Source: a virus. From it: a stretch of 64,000 bases of DNA. Shown here in pieces: positions 45,955 through 64,000 of this stretch (its first letter is position 1; the number at the start of each line of letters is the position of its first letter). The notes under the pieces were generated by a model, which saw nothing but the letters and a program-made list of their open reading frames with translations, was not told the origin of the DNA and made no database searches. Position numbers and translations under genes: made by a program. The DNA lies in the IMG/VR virus record IMGVR_UViG_3300028400_000004, positions 1-64,000 of that record; one strand, given 5' to 3'.

Positions 45955-47240
45955 TAAATCACCTCAACGGCTGGGTCAACATAAACTGTGATATTAGGTG
46001 AGGCTACATGAAAAACAATTTCTGCATGGGCATCTCCTGCTACATCGGCTGGGATGGAAATATCAATATATTGTGCATTTGGCGTTGTTAGTCCAGTCCA
46101 AGAACTCGTTGTATCTATGGGTAATGTTGTCCCTGCGATATGCGGAGAAACTGGATGCGTCTCAACAACAACTCCAAGACCAGTAGAAGGTTTGCGATAT
46201 TTGGCGACTGCCCAAATATCTTGATCCGTTAAAGTCGCACCACCATCTTGAGAAAAATAAATGCGAAGCGTTTTCGCAGTAGATAAGTCAAGAATTTTGC
46301 GATCGATAGGAATAGCAAAACTTTTAACACCAGTCTTAGTTACTGATGTAGTAGCTATTGTAATTGATATTGGTGAACCACCTACAACAGCACCACCAGA
46401 ACGGTAAACAGCGGTCGTAATACTTGCCATACCTTCTGCCCAAACCACATCATAACTTCCAGAAGCATTACTATATAAAACTTCACATCCAGATAGAAAA
46501 TCAGCGCCAGGACTTGTGGTTGAGAATAAAGATACTCCATTAGGTATTGGAGTATTTCTAACGATAAGTTTTCCATTACGGGACGCATTAATTAAAGCAC
46601 CAGACGTCATTGATGAAATATCTAAACCATCTATAACAATATGACCGCCATAAGGCGCAATTACACCATCAGTTCCAGGATCAGTAGTTATAGTACACCC
46701 AATAATTTCAGCATTTGCTTCTCCCAAACATAAAATTCTATATCCAGAAGCAGGTAAAATATCACAATTTATAATACGAATCCTGGTTGAGTAGGCAGTA
46801 GAAGTATTTTGCCTTCCAACTATTTTTATATCTGTATTATTTGTTGAAATTTGACAATCATGCAAAAAAATGTCGCAATTTGAATTTGTAGAACCAACAT
46901 TCATCCAATATCCAGTAGTATTATTATGTATTACTAAACCATAAGCTGCCGCAGCACCATTAACATTCTGTCCACTGTATTTCCTAAACCCAGCCCCTCG
47001 CAGATAAGTCTCATCTCCATTGCCTGTACCTGTGGCCCAATCAACTGAAATGATTTCAATTGGAGGACCATTCAATGGATCTGGGCCACTAACTATCTCA
47101 CTTGTACTATGTGCAGAATCAACCAAAATTCTATCACCATTAGTAAAAGGAATAGCTCCTAAAGTAGCATAAGGCAATGCCTTAGTTCCGTCTGCCGTAG
47201 CATCATCTCCATTAACACTAGACAAGTAATACAAAGCCAT
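45954..47240 (-). CDS. beta-helix (pectin lyase-like) virion protein
   Basis: YYLSSVNGDD...DGT...PYATL...GDRILV N-terminus; beta-rich. Confidence 0.65.
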   Translation of the reverse strand: MALYYLSSVNGDDATADGTKALPYATLGAIPFTNGDRILVDSAHSTSEIVSGPDPLNGPPIEIISVDWATGTGNGDETYLRGAGFRKYSGQNVNGAAAAYGLVIHNNTTGYWMNVGSTNSNCDIFLHDCQISTNNTDIKIVGRQNTSTAYSTRIRIINCDILPASGYRILCLGEANAEIIGCTITTDPGTDGVIAPYGGHIVIDGLDISSMTSGALINASRNGKLIVRNTPIPNGVSLFSTTSPGADFLSGCEVLYSNASGSYDVVWAEGMASITTAVYRSGGAVVGGSPISITIATTSVTKTGVKSFAIPIDRKILDLSTAKTLRIYFSQDGGATLTDQDIWAVAKYRKPSTGLGVVVETHPVSPHIAGTTLPIDTTSSWTGLTTPNAQYIDISIPADVAGDAHAEIVFHVASPNITVYVDPAVEVI

Positions 47241-47767
47241 TAAAAGTTCCCTCCAGCTTGTTGCATCAAAAGTGATGCTTGAATCGCAGCAGACGCTTTA
47301 TCTCTCAATGCTTGTATACCTACAGAATCCAATCCTGTAATAGCCATTAATTCATTATCTGTAAGAGACTGTACAAGCCTTGCACCAATTATCTTATCTT
47401 TAGGGTCTATTGACATAGTTAACTCGTTAAATATACGACCTGCTAATTCTGCATATGTCAAGTGTTCGGTTCCTATAGTATTTCCTAAAGAGTCCCGTAA
47501 GGGGTTATCTCCCCTACGCAACGCATCTAAAACTTTTAATGTTTCTTGTTCCTGTTTTAATTTAATTTTATTTATAGCAGCTTTATTTATTAAATAATTT
47601 ACTTTAGCAGAACTCCATAAATTTGCATTTTTCGGAGCTACTATACGTTCTTTAAGCGTTTGTCCTGTAGCTACATCTTCCATTGAAAACTCTATAATAA
47701 CACCACTATTAGTAGGTATAGTTTTTATTATATTTATGTTTCCTATTAATGAAGAAGCTGGCGGCAT
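47240..47767 (-). CDS. hypothetical protein (structural module)
   Basis: 175 aa, coupled to the downstream gene. Confidence 0.6.
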   Translation of the reverse strand: MPPASSLIGNINIIKTIPTNSGVIIEFSMEDVATGQTLKERIVAPKNANLWSSAKVNYLINKAAINKIKLKQEQETLKVLDALRRGDNPLRDSLGNTIGTEHLTYAELAGRIFNELTMSIDPKDKIIGARLVQSLTDNELMAITGLDSVGIQALRDKASAAIQASLLMQQAGGNF

Positions 47768-47785
47768 TTTTTTATTATTTATTTA

Positions 47786-48025
47786 TTATTTATTAGAAAC
47801 TATAAGTACACCGACAGACCCAGTTGATGGGTCTTCACAAGTTAAATTTACTTGTACTTGTCTGCAAGCCTCTGGATCATATACATCGTTACTAGCAAGA
47901 CAATACTCTCTTAAATTAGCAATTTCATCACCATCTAAACAAACCATAACTTGAATCCCTTTATCTCCGTAGGCACATCCTACTAATAGCACAAATAAAA
48001 ACACTAAAATAATTTTATTTATCAT
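47786..48025 (-). CDS. small lipoprotein
   Basis: Signal peptide with lipobox LVGC and four further Cys. Confidence 0.7.
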   Translation of the reverse strand: MINKIILVFLFVLLVGCAYGDKGIQVMVCLDGDEIANLREYCLASNDVYDPEACRQVQVNLTCEDPSTGSVGVLIVSNK

Positions 48026-48035
48026 TACAATACCC

Positions 48036-48230
48036 TCATAAAATACTATTTAAGTAGTCTATAAATTCTACTGAAAACTCATTCTCAACCAAATCCATTG
48101 CTACTTTTGCAATCTGTTCTAATTTTTCATTCTCAAAATCTGATTTAATTAATACTTTATTAATAAGATAAAAAAGTTCTGTAGAATTTAATGATAATAA
48201 ATAATCTTCAATTTCTGTATATTTATTCAT
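48036..48230 (-). CDS. small acidic hypothetical protein
   Basis: 64 aa, first gene of the leftward block. Confidence 0.55.
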   Translation of the reverse strand: MNKYTEIEDYLLSLNSTELFYLINKVLIKSDFENEKLEQIAKVAMDLVENEFSVEFIDYLNSIL

Positions 48231-48335
48231 ATAACCACACCTAATATAAAACTCAAATTTTAGTTAATAAAGAAAACTTATCATATATGTCAAGACAATT
48301 CAAGAAAGGAGAAGTTGATACTGATGCTTGTAAAT

Positions 48336-48358
48336 GAAAATGAGAATCATTCTCATTT
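48336..48358. promoter_or_regulatory. Fur box
   Basis: Palindrome AAATGAGAATCATTCTCATTT; 16/19 match to the Fur consensus. Confidence 0.65.
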
Positions 48359-48456
48359 GGCGGCATAAAAATAAACACCAAGCCACTTTTCAATTACTAC
48401 TATACTTGCAAAATGCCAATGCTTATTTATTAAGCAAGGGCAATCTTGCCTTTAAT

Positions 48457-49039
48457 CCTGCAAGGAGACCACCACCTCTGGTATCTAAAAATTAAATATA
48501 TAAATATAAACGTTAGATTCGTCCTACTTCGTAGGACTCATCTTGTAACAAAATATAAATATAAAAATTACCTACAAGGAGAATCTACCTACTTAATTAC
48601 TTTTAATTATTTAATATATTGTAACGCTAGATTCGTATCACTTCGTGATACTCATCTTTTAGCTAAAACAAATTATTATAATTTAATACAAGGAGAACTT
48701 AACCACTATTTTCTTATTTATTTCTTATTTAATTAGTATTGTTATCCTCGTATCACTTCGTGATACTCGTCTAGTAACTTTACTATAAAATAAAATTTAA
48801 TTTTTTCCTACAAGGAGATTCTATCCTCTATTAATTTTCTTACTTTGGTTTTAATACCTAGTATTGTTAGATTCGTCCTACTTCGTAGGACTCATCTTGT
48901 AACTATTACTAATTTATTAAAATTAAAATAATTTATTTTCCTATAAGGAGATACATACACTTAGAAATTTTAAATTAAATTTTATTATTTTATATAGAAT
49001 TGTTATCCTCGCACTACTTCGTAGTGCTCGTCTAGTAAC
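48457..49039. repeat. array of five 38-nt hairpin repeats, each preceded by a YAAGGAGA motif
   Basis: Units at 48512, 48626, 48741, 48866 and 49002; compensatory changes in inner and outer stems. Confidence 0.9.
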
Positions 49040-49050
49040 TTTTCTAATAA

Positions 49051-49063
49051 AATCAATAACTTA
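49051..49063 (+). promoter_or_regulatory. IHF-binding consensus
   Basis: AATCAATAACTTA fits WATCAANNNNTTR with an upstream AT tract. Confidence 0.45.
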
Positions 49064-49129
49064 TGGTTTTGAGTTTACTCAAACTCAAGACACACTTATC
49101 CTTAAATCCCTTTAACTCTGGCCACGTAG

Positions 49130-49310
49130 CCATTTTATTTCTTTATTTAACTTCTTTATTCTTTTAATTTCTTTATTTTCTTATTTTTTCTTAATTTCTT
49201 TATTTAATCCTTTATTTTTAATTCTTTTAATTCTATCTTTTTAGATACTTCTTATTTAATTCTTTATATTTGATTCTTTTAATTTCTTTATTTTATTTTT
49301 TTTATCATAT
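49130..49310. other. T-rich low-complexity tract (possible DNA-unwinding element)
   Basis: About 180 nt of TTTA/TTCT repeats, almost no G. Confidence 0.55.
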
Positions 49311-49319
49311 GTCACTCCG

Positions 49320-49865
49320 TTCTTGCGGATTCTTTCATCCTCGTCGGGCTGTTCGCCCGACTCGTTTCAAGCATCCGCATGTTCGAACTTACATTCATAT
49401 TTCAGTTTGTTTAACTTTATGGCTGGCGCGTGGGAAAAAGGCACAATTTGGCCTAGCAGACCAAAGTTGTACCTGCCAAAAATTTGGCTTTTTTCTTGAA
49501 AAAATTAATGAAAAGGCACCTTACCAATGGTTACGTTTTTACACGCGGGGACGGGAGGCCCGTGTCGCCCCTCTTACACATACTTGGGTATCGCTACGCC
49601 TCGGCAGACACATACGACCTGGTAAGTAGCCGTATGGTTCACACCCCTTAATTCTATGGGGTCTCTTGTAGATTCTTTGCCCTCCGGGCGGCCCGCGGCG
49701 ATCTACTTACCGCTAGCCTTGTTGCCTCACCCAACCTGCGCAGCATTACCTGCGCCAGGAATCTAGGCATCTGGATATTCACAAGACCCGTCCAGACCGC
49801 GGTATATCAAATTGTAGGGAGAGCACCCGTAACGAAACTCAGCTAGTGCTTGGTTTCATTACGCT
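49320..49865 (-). ncRNA. GC-rich structured non-coding RNA candidate
   Basis: Downstream of a consensus promoter; multiple stems, no credible ORF. Confidence 0.5.
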
Positions 49866-49869
49866 AGCA

Positions 49870-49898
49870 ACAATAGCACATGCAAATACGCTTGTCAA
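49870..49898 (-). promoter_or_regulatory. sigma70 promoter firing into the non-coding region
   Basis: TTGACA-N17-TATTGT with extended TG. Confidence 0.7.
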
Positions 49899-50074
49899 CT
49901 ATGTTGCAAAATCAGCATCAACACGTTTATTGAAAAATGCGTGCTGAGAACCGTTACACATATATTATCGGCATGACCCCTCAATAGTTTAACTATCCTA
50001 GTAGCTTATCTGCTTGGTTGTTTTGTCTCCTATAACGTGCTAACATAATTGATAAAAATTAATGGTATATAGGT

Positions 50075-50794
50075 ATGAAAAAGGACTTTTACAAAAAATA
50101 TTTTGGATTTATAAATTCAATAATAGAAAAGACGGTTTGTGATCCTTATAATCCAGAACGTAGAGATGATTATCTACAGGAATGTTATTTGGCATTGCTT
50201 GAGGCTAAAGAGAAGTATGATGACAAAAAATCGTCATTCTCTAATTATGCCTACATCGTTGTTAGAGGACGATTGCTTGACTACATAAGAAAGCAAACTT
50301 CTTTATCTAGAGAAGATTACAAGATAGTAAATACGATTCAAAATTTGATTAGTGAGAAAGGTATAGTACGCTATGAGGATATAAGTAAGAATTTTAACGT
50401 AAGTAAAGAAAGGTTTTATAGATTGTTGTCTTTAAGTAAAAATAGTAATTACAAAGATTTATTATATTTTAATTATGATTATTATAGTAATGATGATTTT
50501 GAAGTGGTTGTAGAAGATAAGAAAGAATTAAAAATGCAGTTATATATAAAACCGACACAAGTACATAGGATTGATAATAATAAATTTAGAAAAAAATTAG
50601 ATATTTATTTAGATAGGTTGACTGCTAAGGAGCGTACAGTTATAAAACTGAAATATTATCACGATAAAAGTATTAGTGAGATAGCTTCAATATTTAATGT
50701 TTCGGTAGCTGCGGTTAGTCATATGCATAAAAAGGCAATTAAAAAATTAAAGTCATATATTGGTGATAACGTAAATGAATACCTACATGATTAA
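50075..50794 (+). CDS. sigma70-family sigma factor, FliA/WhiG-like
   Basis: Region 2 DDYLQE...FSNYA...RGRLLDYIRK; region 4 LTAKERTVIKLKYY...SEIA...VSHMHKKAIKKLK. Confidence 0.85.
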   Translation: MKKDFYKKYFGFINSIIEKTVCDPYNPERRDDYLQECYLALLEAKEKYDDKKSSFSNYAYIVVRGRLLDYIRKQTSLSREDYKIVNTIQNLISEKGIVRYEDISKNFNVSKERFYRLLSLSKNSNYKDLLYFNYDYYSNDDFEVVVEDKKELKMQLYIKPTQVHRIDNNKFRKKLDIYLDRLTAKERTVIKLKYYHDKSISEIASIFNVSVAAVSHMHKKAIKKLKSYIGDNVNEYLHD

Positions 50795-50963
50795 AATAGT
50801 TAAGTCAGAATCAGCAGATGATTGGTATCATGACCTTATAGGATACCTACTTCCATTAGTAAGAGAAGAATCCGATTGTTATCTTAGCCGAGATGTAGCA
50901 GGTTACATTAGAAAAGTAAATAAAGAAGATGCAGAGGTTGTATATGATGAAGCGCCCTGGTGA
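50775..50963 (+). CDS. hypothetical protein
   Basis: 62 aa, overlaps both neighbours. Confidence 0.55.
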   Translation: MNTYMIKIVKSESADDWYHDLIGYLLPLVREESDCYLSRDVAGYIRKVNKEDAEVVYDEAPW

Positions 50964-51177
50964 CGTTGTATATGAAAAGATGAGCGCTCTTGGTATGTCG
51001 GTAGATGAACTTGCAAAGGCCCTGGGATTGACGTATAGGCGTTTTGAGGAGCTGCTAGACTCAGAGCTTGTCATTACGCCAGAATTGGCTGAGAAGCTGT
51101 CTAAGGCGCTTGGTGGATGTTCTAAGTATTGGATGGATTTGGAAAATAAATATGTCAGAGATTACAACGGGTTTTGA
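50944..51177 (+). CDS. HigA-like XRE HTH protein (orphan antitoxin-like)
   Basis: RPGDVV.E...GMS...LAKALG...ITPELAEKLSKALG...YWMDLE..Y. Confidence 0.78.
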   Translation: MMKRPGDVVYEKMSALGMSVDELAKALGLTYRRFEELLDSELVITPELAEKLSKALGGCSKYWMDLENKYVRDYNGF

Positions 51178-51183
51178 TATTAT

Positions 51184-52260
51184 ATGTCTGTGAAAGTATT
51201 TAATATAAAGAAAGCTGTTGTTCCTGTAGAAGCGCAAAAATTGTTTTTGGGCGAATATTCTGGTTTTCAGCGTTATGATATTTATCGGTATCCTCAATTA
51301 AGAAAAATTGAGGAAACTATGCGTAATAATTTTTGGAATCCAGAAGAAATCAGTCTTACAGAAGATGCCTTGAAGTTTCAAGAGCTTGATGATGCAATCA
51401 AGGAAGTGTTTACGCAGAATCTTTTGTATCAAACTACTATGGATTCTGTTCAAACAAGAGGACTTCAGGCTGCACTATTAAAAGTTACTTCAATGCCTGA
51501 ATTGGAAAGTTGTTTTAACACACAGGCATATTTTGAGCAGATACATAGTACAAGCTATTCTCATATTGTTCGTTCATTATTTTCTAATGGAACCGAAATT
51601 TTCGATAAAATTGATGATATTCCTGCTATAAAAAATAGGATGGAAGTCGAGGTTTATAATTATAATTTTATAGCATCAAATGATTTTGATGGTTTGAGCA
51701 TCAGCACCAAGCGTAAGTATGTGTTTGAAATGCTTATTCATATTTATGCTATGGAAAGTGTAAAATTTTATTTGTCTTTCTTGATTACATACATGTTGAA
51801 TGATGTTACCAGCAACAGCTTGCAGAGGACTTCTCGCATTATCAAAATGATCCAGTTCGATGAGAATTTACATGTAACTTTGTTTAGGCATCTATTCAAC
51901 ATATTAAAGAAAGAAACTAGAGAGGGGTTTACAAATTATTTTGACAATGAAAAATTTATTTCAATTTTTAATAAAGTAAAGGAAGATGAAATTAATTGGG
52001 GTAAATATTTATTAACTATTTATAATATCCCAGGATTGTCAGAAAAATCTATTGAAAATTTTGTATCATACCATGTTGATAGGGCACTATATACTTTGAA
52101 TATTACAAATAAGAAGCCCGTTAAGGATGATTTGATTAATTGGTTTAATATGGTTTCTAATATTGATAGTGAGAATGTAGCCCAACAAGAAGCCGAGTCT
52201 GTAGCATACCAGATTGGTATTCTTAAAAATGATTTTGAACCTGGTCCCTTGAAGATTTGA
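51184..52260 (+). CDS. nrdB: ribonucleotide reductase class Ia beta subunit
   Basis: FWNPEEI, MDSVQ, EQIHSTSY (radical Tyr), ESVKFY, DENLH. Confidence 0.95.
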   Translation: MSVKVFNIKKAVVPVEAQKLFLGEYSGFQRYDIYRYPQLRKIEETMRNNFWNPEEISLTEDALKFQELDDAIKEVFTQNLLYQTTMDSVQTRGLQAALLKVTSMPELESCFNTQAYFEQIHSTSYSHIVRSLFSNGTEIFDKIDDIPAIKNRMEVEVYNYNFIASNDFDGLSISTKRKYVFEMLIHIYAMESVKFYLSFLITYMLNDVTSNSLQRTSRIIKMIQFDENLHVTLFRHLFNILKKETREGFTNYFDNEKFISIFNKVKEDEINWGKYLLTIYNIPGLSEKSIENFVSYHVDRALYTLNITNKKPVKDDLINWFNMVSNIDSENVAQQEAESVAYQIGILKNDFEPGPLKI

Positions 52261-54596
52261 TAAACATGAAAAATAAAAATATTGTAAATCTTTCTCAGTT
52301 TGAGAAAGCATTAGAGTCTAATACTCAGTTAAATAATATAGATGTTCCTAATATTGTAGTCATTAAAAGAGATGGAAGGGAGGAACCTTATTCAATTAAA
52401 AAAATGCATAAGGTTCTTTCCTGGGCTTGCGAAGGTAATGATTTTTTTGTAAAGGAAATTTTGGAAGGAGTGCAGTTCAAGTTAAAGGATAAAATAAAGA
52501 TTACTGATTTGTATGATGAGGTTATTAAAACTGCTGCACAGAAAATATCTATGTTATATCCGCAGTATGAATATATTGCGGCTAAGCTATTTTTATTGAA
52601 AATTTATAAAGAATCTGGATGTAAGGTCGGCTTTTATCCGAAACTAGGTGACGTTTTGTCTAAGGGAGTTCATTACAAGGTTTATGACAAAGAGGTTGTT
52701 TTGTCATTTACAAGTGATGAGCTAGAAAAGTTAGATGCAGCGATAGATCATACTAGAGATTTTTTATTTAATTACAAAGCATTAACCACTTTTTATAATA
52801 AGTATTGTATTAATTATAGAAAAAATAAGAAATTAGAGTTACCTCAACATGCATATATGCGTGTTGCTATTTTCTTGAATTGGAAAGAAGAAGAAAATCG
52901 TATTGATAAAATAATCGAGACTTATAATCATTTATCTACACATAAGTATGCAGTAGCTACGCCTATTATGCTGCGTAGTTTAACGAATAAACCACAAACG
53001 GCTTCTTGTGTTCTTACTGTAATGCCAGATGATACTGATGGCATTATGGATACTGTTCATAACCTAGCTTTGTACAGTAAGTACAATGGTGGTACTGCTA
53101 CAGATATTTCCGAAGTAAGAGCCAGTGGTTCTTACATCAAAGGCAATAATGGGTATAGCAGTGGTCCTGTAGCCTATTTGAAAATAATAGAATCTGTTAT
53201 GAAGGGGTTTAACCAAGGATCATTAAGAAGTGGCGCCAATTGTAGTTATTTTCCATTCTGGCATTATGATTGGGATAAGCTAATTGTGTTAAAGTCAAAT
53301 GGTGGGACTAGCGAAACACGCTGTCGCACATTAAAGTATGCTGTCAAATTGAGTAATTTTTATTTTGACAGAGTAAAAGAAGATAAAGAAATCACGTTGT
53401 TTGATCCAAAGGATGTTCCTGAACTTTTAACATCTTTTGGTGATGAATTTGTAAAATGGTATGAATACTATGAAAATAAAACGGGAATAAGAAAAAAGAA
53501 GACTAGTGCTAGGGAACACTTTTATCAGTTAATGAAAGAACGTACTGAGACTGGAAACATTTATATATTTTTTACTGATAATGTTAATGAAAACAATATT
53601 TTAGGTAGATACATAAATTCAAGTAATTTGTGCACTGAGGTTTTGATTCCCGCACGTCCTAGTACAGTTAAATTTGAAAAGTTAGTTACTTATGAGGACG
53701 GTCATACTAATACAATTATAGAAAAGGAGACTGGTGAAATAGGTCTATGTAATTTGGCAAGCGTTAATCTTGTAGAATGGTATAACAAGGATGATATTGA
53801 TAGATTTTATTATATTTATAACCTTGTAAGAATCATGGATAACACAATTGATTATGCTTATTATCCTGTAAAAGATGCAAAGTATAGTAATATAAATTAT
53901 CGTTATTTAGGTATTGGTGTTAATAATTATGCTAATTTATTGGCCAGTTTAGGGATCAAATTTGATTCTCAGGAGTCACTAGAGTTTACAGATGAGTTGT
54001 TTTATAAGTTATCTTATAATCTAATTAAGGCAAGTGTAGAATTAGCAAAACAAAGAGGAAGGTTCAAAGCATTTAATACTACTTTATGGTCAAAAGGAAA
54101 ATTGCCAGTAGATTTTGCAAACAAAAATGCAATTAAATTAACAAAAAATAAATATCACGATGATTTTTATTGGAAAGATTTGCGAGATGATATTAGTAAA
54201 TACGGAATTAGAAATGCTTATTTAATGGCTATCATGCCAACGGCTACTTCTGGTAAAGCATTAAATGCTACAGAATCCATAGAACCTGTTTTGGATTTAG
54301 CTTATAAAGAGGAAGGTACGTTCAGCGTTACAACCTTAGCGCCTAATTTTAGAAAGAATAGTACTAAGTATGTAAAGGCTTTTGATTGCGATCCATATAA
54401 GCTAATAGAACTAGCTGCTGTTAGACAGAAATATATAGATCAGACACAATCATTAAATATGTATATAACAAAACCTGATAGCTTGACAGAGTTATTCAAA
54501 TTACATTACTATGCTATGAATCTTGGAATTAAGACTTTGTACTACTTAAAGCAACGTAAAGACACTTCTGAATATGTTTGTGAGTCTTGTACATGA
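52257..54596 (+). CDS. nrdA: ribonucleotide reductase class Ia alpha subunit with ATP cone
   Basis: VIKRDG, ATP..., SC, SNLCTE, CNLAS, MPTATS, KTLYY, CESC. Confidence 0.96.
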   Translation: MINMKNKNIVNLSQFEKALESNTQLNNIDVPNIVVIKRDGREEPYSIKKMHKVLSWACEGNDFFVKEILEGVQFKLKDKIKITDLYDEVIKTAAQKISMLYPQYEYIAAKLFLLKIYKESGCKVGFYPKLGDVLSKGVHYKVYDKEVVLSFTSDELEKLDAAIDHTRDFLFNYKALTTFYNKYCINYRKNKKLELPQHAYMRVAIFLNWKEEENRIDKIIETYNHLSTHKYAVATPIMLRSLTNKPQTASCVLTVMPDDTDGIMDTVHNLALYSKYNGGTATDISEVRASGSYIKGNNGYSSGPVAYLKIIESVMKGFNQGSLRSGANCSYFPFWHYDWDKLIVLKSNGGTSETRCRTLKYAVKLSNFYFDRVKEDKEITLFDPKDVPELLTSFGDEFVKWYEYYENKTGIRKKKTSAREHFYQLMKERTETGNIYIFFTDNVNENNILGRYINSSNLCTEVLIPARPSTVKFEKLVTYEDGHTNTIIEKETGEIGLCNLASVNLVEWYNKDDIDRFYYIYNLVRIMDNTIDYAYYPVKDAKYSNINYRYLGIGVNNYANLLASLGIKFDSQESLEFTDELFYKLSYNLIKASVELAKQRGRFKAFNTTLWSKGKLPVDFANKNAIKLTKNKYHDDFYWKDLRDDISKYGIRNAYLMAIMPTATSGKALNATESIEPVLDLAYKEEGTFSVTTLAPNFRKNSTKYVKAFDCDPYKLIELAAVRQKYIDQTQSLNMYITKPDSLTELFKLHYYAMNLGIKTLYYLKQRKDTSEYVCESCT

Positions 54597-54922
54597 AAAA
54601 AGAAGAGCTTGGTAAAAGATTTAATAATGGAAAGCTAAAGATGTCATTATTATTAGAGTGTGATGATGCATTAGATGGGGCTGTTAGATGTTTGATGCAT
54701 GGAGAAAAAAAGTACGGCAGAAATAATTGGAAGAAAGGATTAAAATACACAGAAATTATTGATAGTTTACTTAGACACTTAAACCAATTTATGCGAGGGC
54801 AAGATGTTGATTTAGAAAGCAATTCAGAGTATAATCACGTTGACGCTATTGTAGTTAATGCGTTGTTTTTGTCTTACATGTTTTATAAACGAAAAGATTT
54901 AGATGACAGGGGTGCAAAATAA
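54587..54922 (+). CDS. DUF5664-type dATP/dGTP diphosphohydrolase domain protein
   Basis: GKRFNNGK, GEKKYGRNNWKKG, SLLRHL, DLES...H...NALFL. Confidence 0.8.
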   Translation: MYMKKEELGKRFNNGKLKMSLLLECDDALDGAVRCLMHGEKKYGRNNWKKGLKYTEIIDSLLRHLNQFMRGQDVDLESNSEYNHVDAIVVNALFLSYMFYKRKDLDDRGAK

Positions 54923-55287
54923 TGGCATTGATTTTATATGCTAGAAAAGGTGATGTTTTTTACATTGATGATGTAAAGCTAAAAGTTGAGAAGTTAATTT
55001 TTGAACCTACTAAGACAAAGAATCCAATTGTAAAAAAGAGTTTTCCATATTCTATGGTTTTGTCTGTTTTTACAGATAAAGGCATGGAAAAATTTTTGAT
55101 TACTAAGGAATGTTTTACTAGTGTACCTGGTTATCCAGACTGGTTACTTGCAGTAGGTTCTCGACACAAAGAAGATAGTAGAAGTTTGTCATTAATGTTT
55201 GAAGTTCCTAAAGAAAATAAGATTTATCGAAAGAAGATTTACGATAAGATTAAGAAGCAAGAGGTGGAAAATCAAAATGGATGCTAA
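54922..55287 (+). CDS. double-length CsrA/RsmA-like protein
   Basis: N-terminal ALILYARKGDVFYIDD resembles MLILTRRVGETLMIGD; C-terminal VPKENKIYRKKIYDKI resembles APKEVSVHREEIYQRI. Confidence 0.6.
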   Translation: MALILYARKGDVFYIDDVKLKVEKLIFEPTKTKNPIVKKSFPYSMVLSVFTDKGMEKFLITKECFTSVPGYPDWLLAVGSRHKEDSRSLSLMFEVPKENKIYRKKIYDKIKKQEVENQNGC

Positions 55288-55648
55288 GAATATGTTTATT
55301 GCTAAAGAAGCCTATGAAGATATGGAAGTATTAGGGCTAAAGGAAGATACTGTTCGTGATATGGTTAAATTGTCTGTTCCGTATAATCATGTAATGGGAA
55401 ATCGCAGGTATAAGCAATTTATTTTCGATTATGATCCAGACAATAACACTTTAAATACTATTGCCCTTCGTGTCCTTAAAATTTATGGCAAAGATGCTGA
55501 GAATGTTTGTAAGACATGTTATGGCGAACGCTATGTAACTATTATCAAACATTATAAGGAACATGATGTGCCTTATGTTGGCAGAGTAAAGTGTAATGAT
55601 GATCACTGCGTTAATGGCCTCTATGTAACTTCAACGAGGGATTACTGA
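55277..55648 (+). CDS. hypothetical protein with C-terminal Zn-ribbon
   Basis: GAGG RBS; CKTC...C...C. Confidence 0.65.
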   Translation: MDAKNMFIAKEAYEDMEVLGLKEDTVRDMVKLSVPYNHVMGNRRYKQFIFDYDPDNNTLNTIALRVLKIYGKDAENVCKTCYGERYVTIIKHYKEHDVPYVGRVKCNDDHCVNGLYVTSTRDY

Positions 55649-55649
55649 T

Positions 55650-56495
55650 ATGAGCAAAGAATCCGTATTAAAAGGATATTCGGAGCCTTATAAAATCCAT
55701 AATGATGGATTTGTGCGTGTTGTTGATGTTATGGGTGATGACGATGCGGTAGTTCAGATGGCCAGAACAAGCTATGGAAAAGGAACAAAAACGGTAAATG
55801 AGGATGCTAATTTAATTAGATATTTAATGCGTCATCGGCATACTTCTCCGTTTGAAGGTGCTGAAATCAAACTTCATATCCGTTGTCCTATTTTTGTTGC
55901 TAGGCAATGGTTGCGCCATAGAACTGCTAGTGTTAATGAATTATCAGCAAGATACTCAGAAATGGAAGATTCTTTTTACGTTCCTGAATTGGATTATGTT
56001 GCTGCGCAAAGTTCCGAAAACAAACAGGTAAGTGGTAATCCAGTAAATGTAGAAGATGCAAGTATTTACAGGGAAAAGTTAACTGAGATACAAAAAATAA
56101 CCTATAATATTTATAAGCAAGCGTTAGAGGTAGGCATTTCCAGAGAACGTGCTCGTGAACTATTACCAGTAGGTATTTATACTGAGTTTTATTGGAAAAT
56201 TGATTTGCATAATCTTTTACATTTTCTTGAATTGCGTATGCATCCACACGCGCAGAGAGAAATTAGGGATTATGCTAATGTTATTGGCAATGAGATTGTA
56301 GCAGAATGGGTACCTATTACTTGGAAGGCTTTTTTAGATTATAGATATAATGCAAAAACTTTTTCTAAAAAGGCATTTGATACATTAAAAGAATTGCTAG
56401 GAACTGGTGGTGTGGAATCCTTCTTAGAAGGTCTGAAGGACAAAGGGCTTACTAAACGAGAAATAAAAGAATACGAAAATATGTTTTTACAATGA
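55650..56495 (+). CDS. thyX: flavin-dependent thymidylate synthase
   Basis: HTSPFE, RQWLRHRTASVNELSARY, NLLHFLELR, HAQREIR. Confidence 0.97.
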   Translation: MSKESVLKGYSEPYKIHNDGFVRVVDVMGDDDAVVQMARTSYGKGTKTVNEDANLIRYLMRHRHTSPFEGAEIKLHIRCPIFVARQWLRHRTASVNELSARYSEMEDSFYVPELDYVAAQSSENKQVSGNPVNVEDASIYREKLTEIQKITYNIYKQALEVGISRERARELLPVGIYTEFYWKIDLHNLLHFLELRMHPHAQREIRDYANVIGNEIVAEWVPITWKAFLDYRYNAKTFSKKAFDTLKELLGTGGVESFLEGLKDKGLTKREIKEYENMFLQ

Positions 56496-56989
56496 AAAAT
56501 AAAAGAATTTCTACGAGAACATACAAATTTCTCATAAAAGATGAGAATAATGTCTATGCAAAATTAGAGAATTTATTTAGGGTAATTGTTTTGCTAAGGA
56601 GAATTTTGATTGAGGATCGGAGACGTGTCCAGGCGAGTTCCGATAGAATTATGGGTACAAATGAGCAGGTTTCTAGGTTTATTGATATTAAAGACGAGAC
56701 ACCATTAAATTTAATACCATATGATACTGCATTGGCAATTATAAAAGATATTTCTGCTTATCATAATAAGAATAAACATGTTCCTAATATTGGTGAATTT
56801 TATAACATAAAAGTGCCATTTTATTGTTCAGTATCATATAGATATGATGAGATGAATGTGCCTGGCATTGGAGTCATCAAAATTAAAAGAGATAAGCCTA
56901 TTCCTAGAGATAGGAGTGTCATTGTTTCTAATATTTATAAAAAAGGCAAATCATGGTACGCAGACTTAGTGACGAAAAAGAAGGAATAG
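56492..56989 (+). CDS. TnpB/OrfB-derived protein, WED+REC only (no RuvC)
   Basis: RTYKFLI, KLENLF, DIKDE.PL, VPGIGVIKIKRDKPIP and KGKSWYADL match the TnpB N-half pattern; ends before RuvC-I. Confidence 0.65.
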   Translation: MKNKRISTRTYKFLIKDENNVYAKLENLFRVIVLLRRILIEDRRRVQASSDRIMGTNEQVSRFIDIKDETPLNLIPYDTALAIIKDISAYHNKNKHVPNIGEFYNIKVPFYCSVSYRYDEMNVPGIGVIKIKRDKPIPRDRSVIVSNIYKKGKSWYADLVTKKKE

Positions 56990-57585
56990 TATTATTAGAA
57001 GTAATAAGGACATTAGACTTATTTTCAGAAAAAAGCCTAAAGATACTCAAGAATAAAATAAATAAAAAGTTAGGGACGAATATAGAAGAAAAGGACCATT
57101 TAATATTTCTTACATATTTATTAGATGAATTAAAATCTATCGGAATAGTTTTAGGTGATGGTAATGTTTATTACGATTTATCACGATATAATCTGGATAA
57201 AGATTTGTTTATAAAGGCATTTGAAACCCTACAGACATCAGCCGCAACATTTAATGTAAAATCACGGGTTGATTTTTATAATTATATAAAATTTGTAATA
57301 CATTTAACTGTAAAATATATATCTAATAATTATATAAATAATGATTTTACGGATACGATTCGCATTTTAATAAAAAATGGATTGGAAAATAATTTAATAG
57401 ATAAAGAAACTGCAAAGAAGTTGCGGGGAAAGTTAAAGCATTTTAATAGTAGATCATTGTCATTGAATAATATATGCCACGTTATTTCTGAGGAGCTGTA
57501 TTACGTCTTTGATTATTCATTTCCCGGTTATTCTAATTCCGAATTTTTTGTAAAGGCAGCTTTGAAAAGGTTTAATAATAAATGA
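56953..57585 (+). CDS. hypothetical protein upstream of the helicase
   Basis: 210 aa, coupled overlaps. Confidence 0.65.
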   Translation: MVRRLSDEKEGIVLLEVIRTLDLFSEKSLKILKNKINKKLGTNIEEKDHLIFLTYLLDELKSIGIVLGDGNVYYDLSRYNLDKDLFIKAFETLQTSAATFNVKSRVDFYNYIKFVIHLTVKYISNNYINNDFTDTIRILIKNGLENNLIDKETAKKLRGKLKHFNSRSLSLNNICHVISEELYYVFDYSFPGYSNSEFFVKAALKRFNNK

Positions 57586-58952
57586 ATTTATCAAAATCTA
57601 TCCAAGAGAACATTCTCCGTATTATTTCATTTGATGATGAGAATTATAAGATTTTCCGGGGATTAGTACCATTGCGGGTTTATGATTCAAAGTATAAGCC
57701 TATTGTAAAGCGGGTTTATAATTATATTGATGAATTTGATGAACCGCCGAAAGCACATTTAGTAGATATTACTGAGGATTTGTTGAAGGAAGATAAATCA
57801 TATTTATCGGTTATTGAAGGTGTTTATGAATTAGAAGATGTAAATGTAGAATATACATTAAAAAAAGTTAGAGCCTTTATTAGGTTACAGGAAATAAAGT
57901 TAGGCATATTAAAAGCTGCCGAAGTTTTAGATACGGCAGATGATGAGGAGTCTTTAGAAGAAGCCGAAGATATTATATTAAAATCAATAAAGAATACACA
58001 TAAAACCTTTGATCCAGGTTTAGAGTTTTCCATAGATGCTTTAGATTCTTTAGATCAAGAAGCTATTGAGTATTTTAGAACTGGTATTAAGTTTTTAGAT
58101 ACTCATAATTTGGGACCTGCACGAAAGAAGTTACACCTATTTATGGCTCCTGCCAAGTTCGGGAAAACTTGGTGGCTTATTCATTTAGGAAAAGAAAATG
58201 TTATGGATGGCAAAAAAGTATTACATTTAACATTAGAAATGAGTCAGTCTAGTGTTGCTAGGCGTTACTTGCAGTCATTCTTCTCTATATCTAATAGAAA
58301 TGAATTGTATAACATATATAAATTTATTCACGATTTAGATGGAAAGATGAGTGATCTTGAGGAATATGAGTTATACCCTAAACACACATTTGAAGAAGGC
58401 AGCTTGAAAGAAAAATTAAAAAATAAAATAGAGAAAGGTAAAAGATATTTTGATAATTTAATAATAAAAGAGTTCCCCACAAGTTCTTTAGCTGTCAGAG
58501 AATTGGACAGTTATTTGGACATGCTGGAGCGTGTAAAAGGTTTTATTCCTGATATTATTATAGTTGATTATGCAGATTTGTTACGCTTAGAAGGCAATGA
58601 TAAACGTATTGCTACTGGAGAGATTTATAAGAATCTACGGGGGCTTGCCATGTCACGAAATGTGGCTATTGCTACAGCCACCCAAACTAATAGGGGGGCA
58701 TTGAACAAGCGCCTTGTTAGTGAGATAGATGTAGCAGAGGATTATTCTAAGATACAGACGGCAGACTGTGTTATTACGTTGAATAAGACAGAAGCAGAAC
58801 GTGAACTAGGTCTTGCCAGGTTATATGTAACTGCTGCGCGTGATGACGTAGATAAAATGGAGATTTGCATTTCACAGGCTTATGGGATTGGCCAATTTGC
58901 GTTAGATAGTGCTTTAACACCTAAAGATTATGAAACATTTATAAACAAGTAA
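57582..58952 (+). CDS. DnaB-like replicative helicase
   Basis: Walker A APAKFGKT, TLEMS, IIVDYADL, TATQTNR, AEDYSK. Confidence 0.9.
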   Translation: MNLSKSIQENILRIISFDDENYKIFRGLVPLRVYDSKYKPIVKRVYNYIDEFDEPPKAHLVDITEDLLKEDKSYLSVIEGVYELEDVNVEYTLKKVRAFIRLQEIKLGILKAAEVLDTADDEESLEEAEDIILKSIKNTHKTFDPGLEFSIDALDSLDQEAIEYFRTGIKFLDTHNLGPARKKLHLFMAPAKFGKTWWLIHLGKENVMDGKKVLHLTLEMSQSSVARRYLQSFFSISNRNELYNIYKFIHDLDGKMSDLEEYELYPKHTFEEGSLKEKLKNKIEKGKRYFDNLIIKEFPTSSLAVRELDSYLDMLERVKGFIPDIIIVDYADLLRLEGNDKRIATGEIYKNLRGLAMSRNVAIATATQTNRGALNKRLVSEIDVAEDYSKIQTADCVITLNKTEAERELGLARLYVTAARDDVDKMEICISQAYGIGQFALDSALTPKDYETFINK

Positions 58953-63200: not shown

Positions 63201-64000
63201 TGGCATTTTTACTTAAAAAGAAATCAAAAAACAGCCACACTAATAAGTTTTTTAATGATATAGTATCCAAAGGGTGTGCTTATTGTCCATTGAGTGTTGA
63301 GGAGGATCATAGATTTGATCCCATAGGGACAGACAGACCATTGTTTTATGTTGTTATGGATAAGCCAGTTGAACAAGATTACAGGCTTAAAAAATCTTAT
63401 GGATCATTCCTTGGAAGAAAAGTAATAAAAGTAATAGCAGATGCCTTTACTGCATATAAAAAAGAAATTGTTTCTTCTTCTGATGTTTTGTCTTATGTAC
63501 GGTTTGGATATTTATTAAGGACTTTTACAAAAAATAAAAAATTAGATTCAAGTTATGCTTTTTGTATTAATAAATTTATAGAAGACGTTAGACAAACAGA
63601 CCCAAGGTTTATAGTTGTTTTTGGAGCAGGTGCTTTAGGCCGGATAGCCAACATAACGAATATAAGAAATATTAGGGGAAAACCTTTTCCTTATCATATA
63701 GGTGGTAAAACACGTTGGGTCATTGGGTTTGATGATCCATATAAAATGTTAGATGATAATAACAACTATTGGGGAAAGACTTTTTCTGGACAGTTGGTTC
63801 GTTCTTTTGATTTTGGAACTCCACCTGACATAGATAAATACAAAAAAATAGAATCAAAGAAAGTCCTTCCTGGTGAATATGTAACTGTTACGCATGAGCA
63901 AGATTTTGAAAAAGTTATTCATTCTTTCTCCGTCTTGGAGAAGTCAAATACCGTTGGATTCGATATAGAAACTACGTCTAAGGAGACTGTGCAATCTAGG
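63200..64000 (+). CDS. DNA polymerase with N-terminal UDG-like domain, 3'-truncated by window
   Basis: CAYCPL...DPRFIVVFGAGA...RG family-4 UDG-like pattern, then ExoI motif VGFDIETT. Confidence 0.75.
   Translation, partial: MAFLLKKKSKNSHTNKFFNDIVSKGCAYCPLSVEEDHRFDPIGTDRPLFYVVMDKPVEQDYRLKKSYGSFLGRKVIKVIADAFTAYKKEIVSSSDVLSYVRFGYLLRTFTKNKKLDSSYAFCINKFIEDVRQTDPRFIVVFGAGALGRIANITNIRNIRGKPFPYHIGGKTRWVIGFDDPYKMLDDNNNYWGKTFSGQLVRSFDFGTPPDIDKYKKIESKKVLPGEYVTVTHEQDFEKVIHSFSVLEKSNTVGFDIETTSKETVQSR

Follow-up and report, generated by a model that had tools for sequence, protein, structure and literature searches.

A probable RuvC-less TnpB recognition lobe encoded in the replication operon of an uncultured phage

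The DNA considered here (the window, 64,000 nucleotides [nt]) comprises the first 64 kb of the 83,753-bp IMG/VR virus record IMGVR_UViG_3300028400_000004, for which CheckV gives a completeness estimate of 79%. On its plus strand, directly after a thymidylate synthase gene (thyX) and two genes ahead of a DnaB-like replicative helicase gene, lies an open reading frame (ORF) of 165 codons, referred to as the mini gene. An original prediction, made from the letters alone, had described its product as the N-terminal half of TnpB, the nuclease of IS200/IS605-type insertion sequences (ISs), cut off where the RuvC nuclease half would begin and built into the replication operon. The features of the gene itself are as follows.

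56492..56989, plus strand: the mini gene, encoding a probable 165-amino-acid (aa) RuvC-less TnpB recognition lobe (WED+REC), as judged from the ORF list, an Atlas structure match, and relatives
56492..56495, plus strand: ATGA overlap of the mini gene start with the thyX stop, read from the sequence
56953..56989, plus strand: 37-nt overlap between the mini gene and the following gene, orf210, whose frame is -1 with respect to that of the mini gene

The mini gene is a real ORF that appears in the ORF list, and the opposite strand carries no ORF of at least 50 aa from 56247 to 57824. As predicted, it overlaps both of its neighbors. Its ATG (56492 to 56494) shares the ATGA sequence with the TGA of thyX (56493 to 56495), through which the mini gene is probably translationally coupled to thyX, and its 3' end runs 37 nt past the ATG of orf210 at 56953. 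This ATG is the sole possible start of orf210, there being no other ATG, GTG, or TTG downstream in frame. The mini protein is very basic (isoelectric point [pI], 9.85; 20% Lys plus Arg); of the 12 operon genes for which the pI was computed, no other reaches as high a value. The GC content of the gene (0.307; 0.271 at third codon positions) is similar to that of the neighboring genes. An A6G run is present at 56939 to 56945, in the stretch from 56936 to 56956 at the 37-nt overlap region, and the orf210 frame opens right after its own TAA at 56938 to 56940. Slippage by -1 at these two AAA codons would join lobe residues 1 to 151 to the entire orf210; A-runs are common at 33% GC, and this run may be meaningless.

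The fold gives a clear, though indirect, link to TnpB. The ESM Atlas contains a confident model of this exact 165-aa sequence (predicted template modeling score [pTM], 0.81; predicted local distance difference test score [pLDDT], 0.82). Compared with the models of two full-length TnpB clusters, it reaches a query-normalized template modeling (TM) score of 0.85 over 162 residues (positions 1 to 164). These clusters, one of 382 aa and the other of 410 aa (mostly Deinococcota), consist of proteins 99 to 100% of which carry the TnpB domains PF01385, PF07282, and PF12323. The model also matches clusters of 184 aa (TM score, 0.83) and 233 aa (TM score, 0.81) that carry PF12323, and TnpB Pfam domains occur in each of the four family sets displayed for the 30 nearest Atlas models. 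The original prediction was to fall if no structural match to TnpB was found; among Atlas models there is one.

Sequence comparison points in the same direction, at a much lower level. An alignment of the mini protein with its two relatives (P0002 and P0003, described below) was compared by hhalign with an alignment of cyanobacterial TnpB proteins, yielding P values of 1.4e-4 and 9.8e-5 over residues 116 to 160. None of 353 column shuffles reached the score (34.5, versus a maximum of 24.9 in the shuffles), and the reversed alignment scored 11.1. At low stringency the hhalign alignment is colinear from residues 2 to 165 of the mini protein against 1 to 183 of TnpB, placing the T-Y-K-F start on the T-Y-E-F of the first TnpB strand. 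In a tblastn search of 2.3 Gb of GenBank phages (E of ≤1), only four records were returned, representing three Nodularia phages and one TnpB gene (E, 0.3). By BLASTP, residues 101 to 162 correspond to positions 122 to 183 of the Nodularia phage TnpB, in which PF01385 starts at position 189. Among 7.3 Gb of plasmids (E of ≤10), the sole tblastn match was a Chondrocystis TnpB adjoining an IS200-like tnpA, where query residues 112 to 159 align with about 148 to 195. The predicted TnpB N-half pattern, running from RTYKF to WY, is thus present beyond chance, as judged from the shuffles and from tblastn matches at the homologous position, with the reservation that the RTYKF start is lost in P0003, the relative with 48% identity.

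In ISDra2 TnpB, WED comprises residues 1 to 12 and 117 to 176, REC comprises residues 13 to 116, and RuvC begins at residue 185, according to the domain description in PMC10097598. Because the 165-aa protein aligns end to end with residues 1 to 176 of ISDra2, that is, with WED plus REC, it is the REC lobe alone. Its C terminus coincides with the ISDra2 boundary and lies just ahead of the PF01385 start in the Nodularia phage TnpB, which bears out the claim that it stops where RuvC would begin. The protein is divided as follows.

56492..56539, plus strand: residues 1 to 16, basic N-terminal tail and predicted first WED strand (T-Y-K-F-x-I-K); boundary approximate
56540..56791, plus strand: residues ~17 to 100, predicted helical REC inserted in WED, from the colinear hhalign alignment; boundaries approximate
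56792..56986, plus strand: residues 101 to 165, remainder of the WED barrel, ending at the W-Y strand (in TnpB, the strand ahead of RuvC), from BLASTP and hhalign

Only the last of these parts (residues 101 to 165) shows detectable sequence similarity to TnpB. In the first, residues 10 to 17 fall on the first strand of the cyanobacterial TnpB in the low-stringency alignment, and 3 of the 16 positions are invariant within the family. Across the family alignment, 65 of 165 positions are invariant. They are concentrated in residues 36 to 59 (15 of 24), 75 to 87 (10 of 13), and 97 to 127 (18 of 31), while residues 60 to 74 (1 of 15) and 128 to 147 (2 of 20) are variable. When the alignments are chained through the Nodularia phage TnpB, the invariant V-P-F-Y-C (residues 108 to 112) falls on ISDra2 strand T120-N125. 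In the structure described in PMC10097598, Q121, T123, and N124 of that strand contact the transposon-adjacent motif (TAM) and the first target-strand phosphate. For the block at residues 75 to 87, the low-confidence extension of the hhalign alignment and a reading by eye give different ISDra2 REC helices.

The rest of a TnpB element was sought by six-frame searches of the entire record (83,753 bp; E of ≤10), which were positive in between 10 and 14 of the 14 genomes used as controls. No match was found to RuvC (PF01385), to the zinc-ribbon domain TNB (PF07282; control search positive in 14 of 14 genomes), or to PF12323. The Y1 transposase TnpA (PF01797) was likewise absent, in a search that was aimed at this type and not at the IS607-type serine-recombinase TnpA. 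The gene has no intergenic space on either side, and only two-copy repeats at chance level were found there, so that the predicted lack of tnpA and of IS ends holds. A recent IS insertion was rejected on the same grounds (no TnpA, no IS ends, no intergenic space) and because the composition matches that of the operon. An adjacent omegaRNA, for which the original prediction saw no room, was also rejected. Both flanks are coding; the 300 nt around the 3' end (56880 to 57180) fold no better than shuffled sequences (z score, 0.18); Rfam gave nothing at gathering thresholds over the whole window; and at E of ≤5 over positions 47000 to 58500 it gave three chance-level matches, none of them omegaRNA-like. 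As a further candidate, we considered a split or frameshifted full-length TnpB (165 plus 210, or 375 aa). It was rejected because orf210 carries no RuvC or zinc-ribbon signal; the Atlas look-alikes of orf210 are helical proteins, and no TnpB or RuvC family is present among the clusters listed.

An exhaustive phmmer search of 1.84 billion representative proteins returned only two relatives of the mini protein, P0002 (165 aa, 76% identity) and P0003 (167 aa, 48% identity). The P0002 cluster has three members of 165 aa on ENA contigs of 35 to 50 kb, and P0003 is encoded on an 828-bp contig. The relatives therefore have nearly the same length (165, 165, 165, and 167 aa), and the family alignment contains a single 2-residue indel, at the N terminus; the variable length by which the original prediction proposed to recognize decaying remnants is not seen. 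No full-length TnpB was within phmmer reach among the same representatives, nor was any longer or fused relative found among 8,000 longer candidates that were scored. The DNA of the relatives was not found when viral, metagenome, and genome contig collections were scanned with the protein or the family alignment, and the helicase, used as a query in the viral contig collection, likewise gave no match. We simulated neutral evolution as substitution-only drift of the mini-gene DNA at the base composition of the genome. At 76% protein identity, 39 of 1,000 genes remained free of stop codons; at 48% identity none of 1,000 did, the mean being 7.1 stops. Since the length is the same across relatives, no neutral gene stayed open at the larger distance, and conservation is patchy, we regard the gene as maintained by selection. 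It is not a fresh remnant: of the features of a decaying TnpB pseudogene, neither a close full-length parent nor variable length was found. Ordinary TnpB fragments of 230 to 261 aa retrieved in our TnpB search are 69 to 83% identical to full-length TnpB.

Taken together, the gene very likely encodes a selected, nuclease-less TnpB recognition lobe that belongs to a small lineage of uncultured phages, keeps the same length, and is wired into an operon. Several results weigh against this view and against the function proposed below. The mini protein belongs to no Pfam, NCBIfam, PHROGs, or PADLOC family, and the same is true of its relatives; the only Pfam match is a subthreshold one to PMBR. None of the TnpB Pfam models matches any of the three family members at E of ≤10, the PF12323 (HTH_OrfB_IS605) signature being seen in 0 of 3. 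Searches of PDB sequences, with the protein or with the three-sequence profile, did not return TnpB and gave only chance-level designed armadillo repeats. The hhalign probability is just 53 to 58%, and the global hhalign alignment is not significant (probability, 1.3%; P, 0.016). A TnpB profile hidden Markov model scores the three proteins at 14.6, 6.7, and 0.5 bits, and P0003 taken alone shows no similarity to TnpB (no tblastn match; 0 of 123 by BLASTP). The fold comparison sets a predicted model against predicted models, not against solved TnpB structures. Only 5 sequences, grouped in 3 clusters, make up the family. Furthermore, all profile comparisons rest on one narrow cyanobacterial TnpB family (111 of the 120 proteins listed, with 18 in the alignment), and a viral scan made to broaden the TnpB profile yielded only seven loci, all of this same cyanobacterial family.

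Around the mini gene, one very compact plus-strand operon extends from about 50 kb to 73.6 kb of the record. Its features from the sigma factor to the helicase are listed below.

50075-50794, plus strand: sigma factor with regions 2 and 4, opening the operon
after the sigma factor, plus strand: small and large subunits of a class I ribonucleotide reductase (RNR), assigned from position and size only
54587-54922, plus strand: dATP/dGTP diphosphohydrolase-like protein of 111 aa (N-terminal domain PF18909, E of 1.1e-21; PHROG 801)
54922-55287, plus strand: 121-aa protein with a subthreshold CsrA-like tail
55199-55648, plus strand: ORF of 149 aa
55650..56495, plus strand: thyX, flavin-dependent thymidylate synthase (Pfam Thy1, PF02511, E of 1.7e-53; PHROG 85)
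56953..57585, plus strand: orf210, basic and probably helical, with no Pfam, PHROGs, NCBIfam, or PADLOC family
57582..58952, plus strand: DnaB-like replicative helicase (PF03796, E of 3.1e-13; tblastn matches to phage helicases)

The genes for ThyX, the mini protein, orf210, the DnaB-like helicase, an SNF2 helicase, and a Toprim primase form an overlapping, coupled chain. A full replisome follows in the record, including a weak beta-clamp-like protein. Positions 63754 to 73654 encode a family A DNA polymerase, a clamp-loader-like AAA+ ATPase, a gp32-like single-stranded DNA-binding protein, RNase H, RecA, an Mre11-like phosphoesterase, a Rad50/SbcC-like ATPase, and the large terminase subunit. 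Judged from these gene assignments, the replisome is a near-complete, self-encoded one for an 84-kb phage. A Pfam scan of 25 operon ORFs detected no known initiator or helicase-loader family. At about 50 kb the GC skew flips from about -0.2 to about +0.3, and the direction of transcription flips there too; the sigma factor gene, of the extracytoplasmic function (ECF)-like type, sits at this switch. The sigma factor is thus in the operon, as had been claimed, at its head; it lies 5.7 kb upstream of the mini gene, with seven ORFs between. The CsrA-like neighbor was confirmed only in part: the 121-aa protein has a partial CsrA match at residues 89 to 111 (NCBIfam E of 0.004 to 0.009), which is subthreshold (22.7 bits versus a cutoff of 27). 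Promoter-like and terminator-like sites are no more frequent in the 49.5- to 59-kb region than in shuffled sequences, and ARAGORN detected no transfer RNA or transfer-messenger RNA gene in window positions 1 to 64000.

Some observations concern the neighbors. The 121-aa and 149-aa ORFs share 89 nt, which makes a misassigned start probable for one of them. The diphosphohydrolase-like gene adjoins the RNR genes and thyX, which hints at a reshaping of the deoxynucleoside triphosphate pool, perhaps for a modified base; Edwardsiella phage ZHS, a distant relative, has 7-deazaguanine genes near its replication module. The orf210 protein has a pI of 9.16 and a poor Atlas model (pTM, 0.31). Its gene overlaps that of the DnaB-like helicase by ATGA at 57582 to 57585, and because of this coupling orf210 is a candidate helicase loader without recognizable homology. 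By helicase, the nearest GenBank phages are Edwardsiella phage ZHS (36%) and Vibrio phage MAR10 (30%). Placement of the host through the RNR large subunit did not succeed, with two matches at 25%, both to metagenome-assembled genomes of Flavobacteriia.

What such a lobe could still bind is suggested by the ISDra2 structure. As described in PMC10097598, WED and REC by themselves form the cleft that accommodates the TAM duplex. Binding of the omegaRNA scaffold, in contrast, involves WED plus RuvC, which enclose the pseudoknot from both sides, and REC and RuvC flank the guide-target heteroduplex. By analogy with that structure, the sole complete nucleic acid site of a lobe-only protein would be the duplex DNA (TAM) cleft. 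Guide-independent motif reading is the most economical proposal, because only this cleft is complete without RuvC, and the placement of V-P-F-Y-C on the TAM-contacting strand is consistent with a DNA reader. The gene product is very likely the REC lobe alone, a WED beta-barrel with helical REC inserted, of an element whose nuclease lobe (RuvC, the zinc-ribbon TNB, and the C-terminal tail), omegaRNA gene, and transposon ends have all been lost. We propose that this small, very basic protein would read a short double-stranded DNA motif or a DNA structure without a guide and would have a role in phage DNA replication, for example, in origin marking or helicase loading.

The gene order of initiator, loader, and helicase is known from lambda (O-P) and from SPP1 (genes 38, 39, and 40). 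Origin marking or helicase loading is put first here because the gene order at this locus resembles that one and because no known initiator or loader was found among the 25 ORFs; we consider this mechanism possible, though only as a tentative choice. The whole statement, namely, that a recognition lobe serves replication by guide-independent DNA binding, mechanism included, falls somewhat short of an even chance in our judgment, and a role in the regulation of replication is a possible alternative. The narrower proposal that the protein is a protein-only DNA reader used as a replication initiator or helicase-loading adaptor together with orf210 and the DnaB-like helicase is unlikely. Against a replication role stand several points. 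No evidence connects the protein with the origin-like region at 48.4 to 49.9 kb; no iterons were found in or beside the mini gene; and the GC-skew switch lies about 6.5 kb upstream of it. In addition, ZHS and MAR10 share the helicase-SNF2 order and lack the mini gene, which therefore does not belong to the core replication genes of this wider group. An origin inside the mini gene, of the kind exemplified by lambda O, found no support, there being no iterons and the skew switch lying at about 50 kb.

Other explanations take the same lobe and give it a different task. Some phages encode Cas protein fragments or homologues that act as inhibitors, and the mini protein, which is phage-borne, coexpressed with replication genes, and retains the TAM-reading half of the fold, might be an antidefense decoy that competes with a host TnpB/Cas12-type effector by occupying TAMs or protospacer-adjacent motifs (PAMs) or by soaking up guide RNA, thereby protecting the replicating phage DNA. 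However, no full-length TnpB or Cas12 came within phmmer reach among the 1.84 billion representatives, nor did one turn up among the 8,000 longer candidates scored, so there is no sign that a particular host protein is mimicked; PADLOC gave no match; host placement through the RNR gave just the two 25% matches; and early or antidefense genes usually lie outside tightly coupled replisome operons, which we count against a decoy. On balance this is an unlikely role. An RNA-binding or translational regulator comparable to RegA of T4, in which the WED oligonucleotide-binding (OB) fold and basic REC helices would bind messenger RNA leaders or an RNA encoded at 49.3 to 49.9 kb and so tune the replication genes, seems doubtful to a similar degree. 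In its favor, the protein has a pI of 9.85, and WED is an OB fold that contacts stem 4 and the pseudoknot of the omegaRNA in the TnpB structure of PMC10097598. The same description, however, places most of the RNA contacts of TnpB in need of RuvC (PMC10097598), and here neither excess structure adjoining the gene (z, 0.18) nor any Rfam match at gathering thresholds in the window was found, the three matches at E of ≤5 in 47000 to 58500 being at chance level. Another functional option of the original prediction, a trans-guided regulator that would use a guide RNA from 48.4 to 49.9 kb as a smaller version of TldR or dCas12f, perhaps with the sigma factor, is very unlikely. Nuclease-dead TnpB and Cas12f proteins do act as RNA-guided transcription factors, some of them paired with sigma-E, in the accounts of PMC10691335, PMC13472631, and PMC13622181; stand-alone omegaRNAs acting in trans are reported in PMC10691335; and a sigma factor opens this operon. 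But all of the exapted forms described in those accounts (PMC10691335, PMC13472631, PMC13622181) keep the RuvC scaffold, whereas in the mini protein both the WED/RuvC site for the scaffold and the REC/RuvC site for the heteroduplex are incomplete. The sigma gene is 5.7 kb away and not adjacent, and no omegaRNA-like Rfam match was found in the window or, at the relaxed threshold, in 47000 to 58500. Because in TnpB and TldR it is mainly the RuvC lobe, missing from the mini protein, that carries the guide scaffold, the trans-guided RNA is the least favored of the three functional options that had been put forward; the TldR guide RNA runs along a surface that spans RuvC (PMC13622181).

Two further explanations dispute the origin or the upkeep of the gene. 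N-terminal TnpB fragments are common, including pieces of 230 to 261 aa with PF12323, with or without PF01385 (e.g., P0036, P0042, P0118, and P0064), and the Atlas has PF12323 clusters of 184 aa and 233 aa; the mini gene could accordingly be an inert remnant, the first half of an old IS-inserted TnpB that has stayed open by chance and is carried along by the operon. Yet the ordinary fragments are close to full-length TnpB, at 69 to 83% identity, and the mini protein has no full-length relative. Its relatives are of equal length, 0 of 1,000 neutral runs were stop free at 48% identity, conservation is patchy, both gene ends overlap neighbors, and the composition matches that of the operon, all of which makes a remnant most improbable. 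It is also highly improbable that the protein is not derived from TnpB, being instead either an unrelated, convergent protein with an OB fold and a helical bundle or an ancestor of the lobe that has survived in stand-alone form. The failure of every TnpB family model, the nonsignificant global hhalign alignment, and the lack of TnpB similarity in P0003 would fit such an origin, but the TM score of 0.85 covers 162 of the 165 residues and includes the unusual topology in which REC follows the first WED strand, the family sets shown among the 30 nearest models are all TnpB, and independent searches returned only TnpB, at the homologous position, with support from the shuffle control.

Descent from TnpB does not make the protein a TnpB. 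With ISDra2 TnpB (PDB 8H1J, 8EXA, and 8BF8) it shares the predicted REC-lobe fold, with colinear order of the elements, and in sequence its final WED strands, as far as W-Y, are weakly similar. TnpB, however, has about 400 aa and is IS-borne and mobile, whereas the mini protein has 165 aa, is set in an operon, and lacks RuvC, TNB, and the C-terminal domain; its gene lacks the omegaRNA, IS ends, and TnpA (PF01797 searched) that accompany TnpB, and the family models do not recognize its sequence. Of six TnpB features examined, only the REC lobe (a WED barrel with REC helices inserted) was found, on the strength of the Atlas TM score of 0.85 and the colinear hhalign alignment (P, 1e-4). The RuvC domain with its D-E-D triad, TNB, an omegaRNA at the 3' end, the IS context, and the PF12323 signature were not. 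The evidence thus supports a protein that descends from and works like the REC lobe of TnpB, and because five of the six features are lacking, we do not file it as TnpB.

The closest parallels are immobilized or nuclease-less members of the TnpB/Cas12 superfamily. TldRs, reported by Wiegand et al. in 2024, are TnpB-like nuclease-dead repressors. Like them, the mini protein would be an immobilized derivative of TnpB, no longer able to cleave and retained by a host or phage genome for a binding function, binding being probable here and immobilization being observed in this one record. Some TldRs are phage-borne, and they are bilobed proteins with a degenerate RuvC retained and an adjacent guide RNA bound along it, according to PMC13622181; the mini gene, in contrast, lacks the whole nuclease lobe as well as an adjacent guide RNA gene. 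The sigma-E-associated dCas12f (or Sigma-TnpB) proteins are likewise nuclease-less members of the superfamily with an ECF-like sigma factor in the same segment. Those described in PMC13472631 have lost part of the RuvC site, keep a Cas12f-like fold, and are encoded adjacent to rpoE and guide RNAs, whereas the sigma gene here is 5.7 kb upstream of the mini gene, across the seven intervening ORFs. The definitions of TldR and dCas12f call for a degenerate RuvC that is retained and a guide RNA encoded next to the gene, and the mini protein falls outside both. In the accounts given by PMC10691335, PMC13472631, and PMC13622181, TldR, sigma-associated dCas12f, Cas12k, and Cas12m all keep the RuvC scaffold and a guide RNA. 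No TnpB derivative consisting of WED and REC only was found in the literature searched, in which supplementary clade lists (e.g., that of PMC10691335) could hold such forms. A likeness of another kind is that to the initiator modules of lambda (O-P) and SPP1 (G38P-G39P-G40P), in that the mini gene is the first of a coupled trio ending in a DnaB-type helicase and encodes a small, basic protein; the mini protein differs in having no homology to initiator families and no iterons, so that this likeness comes from gene order alone.

A separate observation concerns other proteins of this size. By language-model features, 21 of the 30 nearest Atlas clusters have no common Pfam family. The three unannotated clusters shown, from Bacillota, Cyanobacteriota, and Actinomycetota, consist of hypothetical proteins of 156, 171, and 166 aa (60 to 111 members; scores of 0.96), and the feature search as a whole returned many unannotated clusters of 140 to 190 aa with scores of 0.95 to 0.96. 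These look-alikes may be further lobe-only TnpB-like proteins, a lead by which lobe-only proteins may turn out to be common.

A selected, lobe-only derivative would show that the TAM-reading half of TnpB can fold and be useful on its own, and it would add a guide-free form to the known evolutionary plasticity of TnpB. As a natural module of 165 aa, it could also be used to study or borrow TAM- or PAM-type DNA recognition. The position of the gene in a replisome operon hints that DNA readers derived from transposons may be linked to the control of replication. If the proposed function is true, the mini protein would represent a replication factor of a new class, derived from the nuclease of a transposon, and, together with the unannotated Atlas look-alikes of 140 to 190 aa, one case of a widespread, undescribed exaptation of TnpB in lobe-only form.

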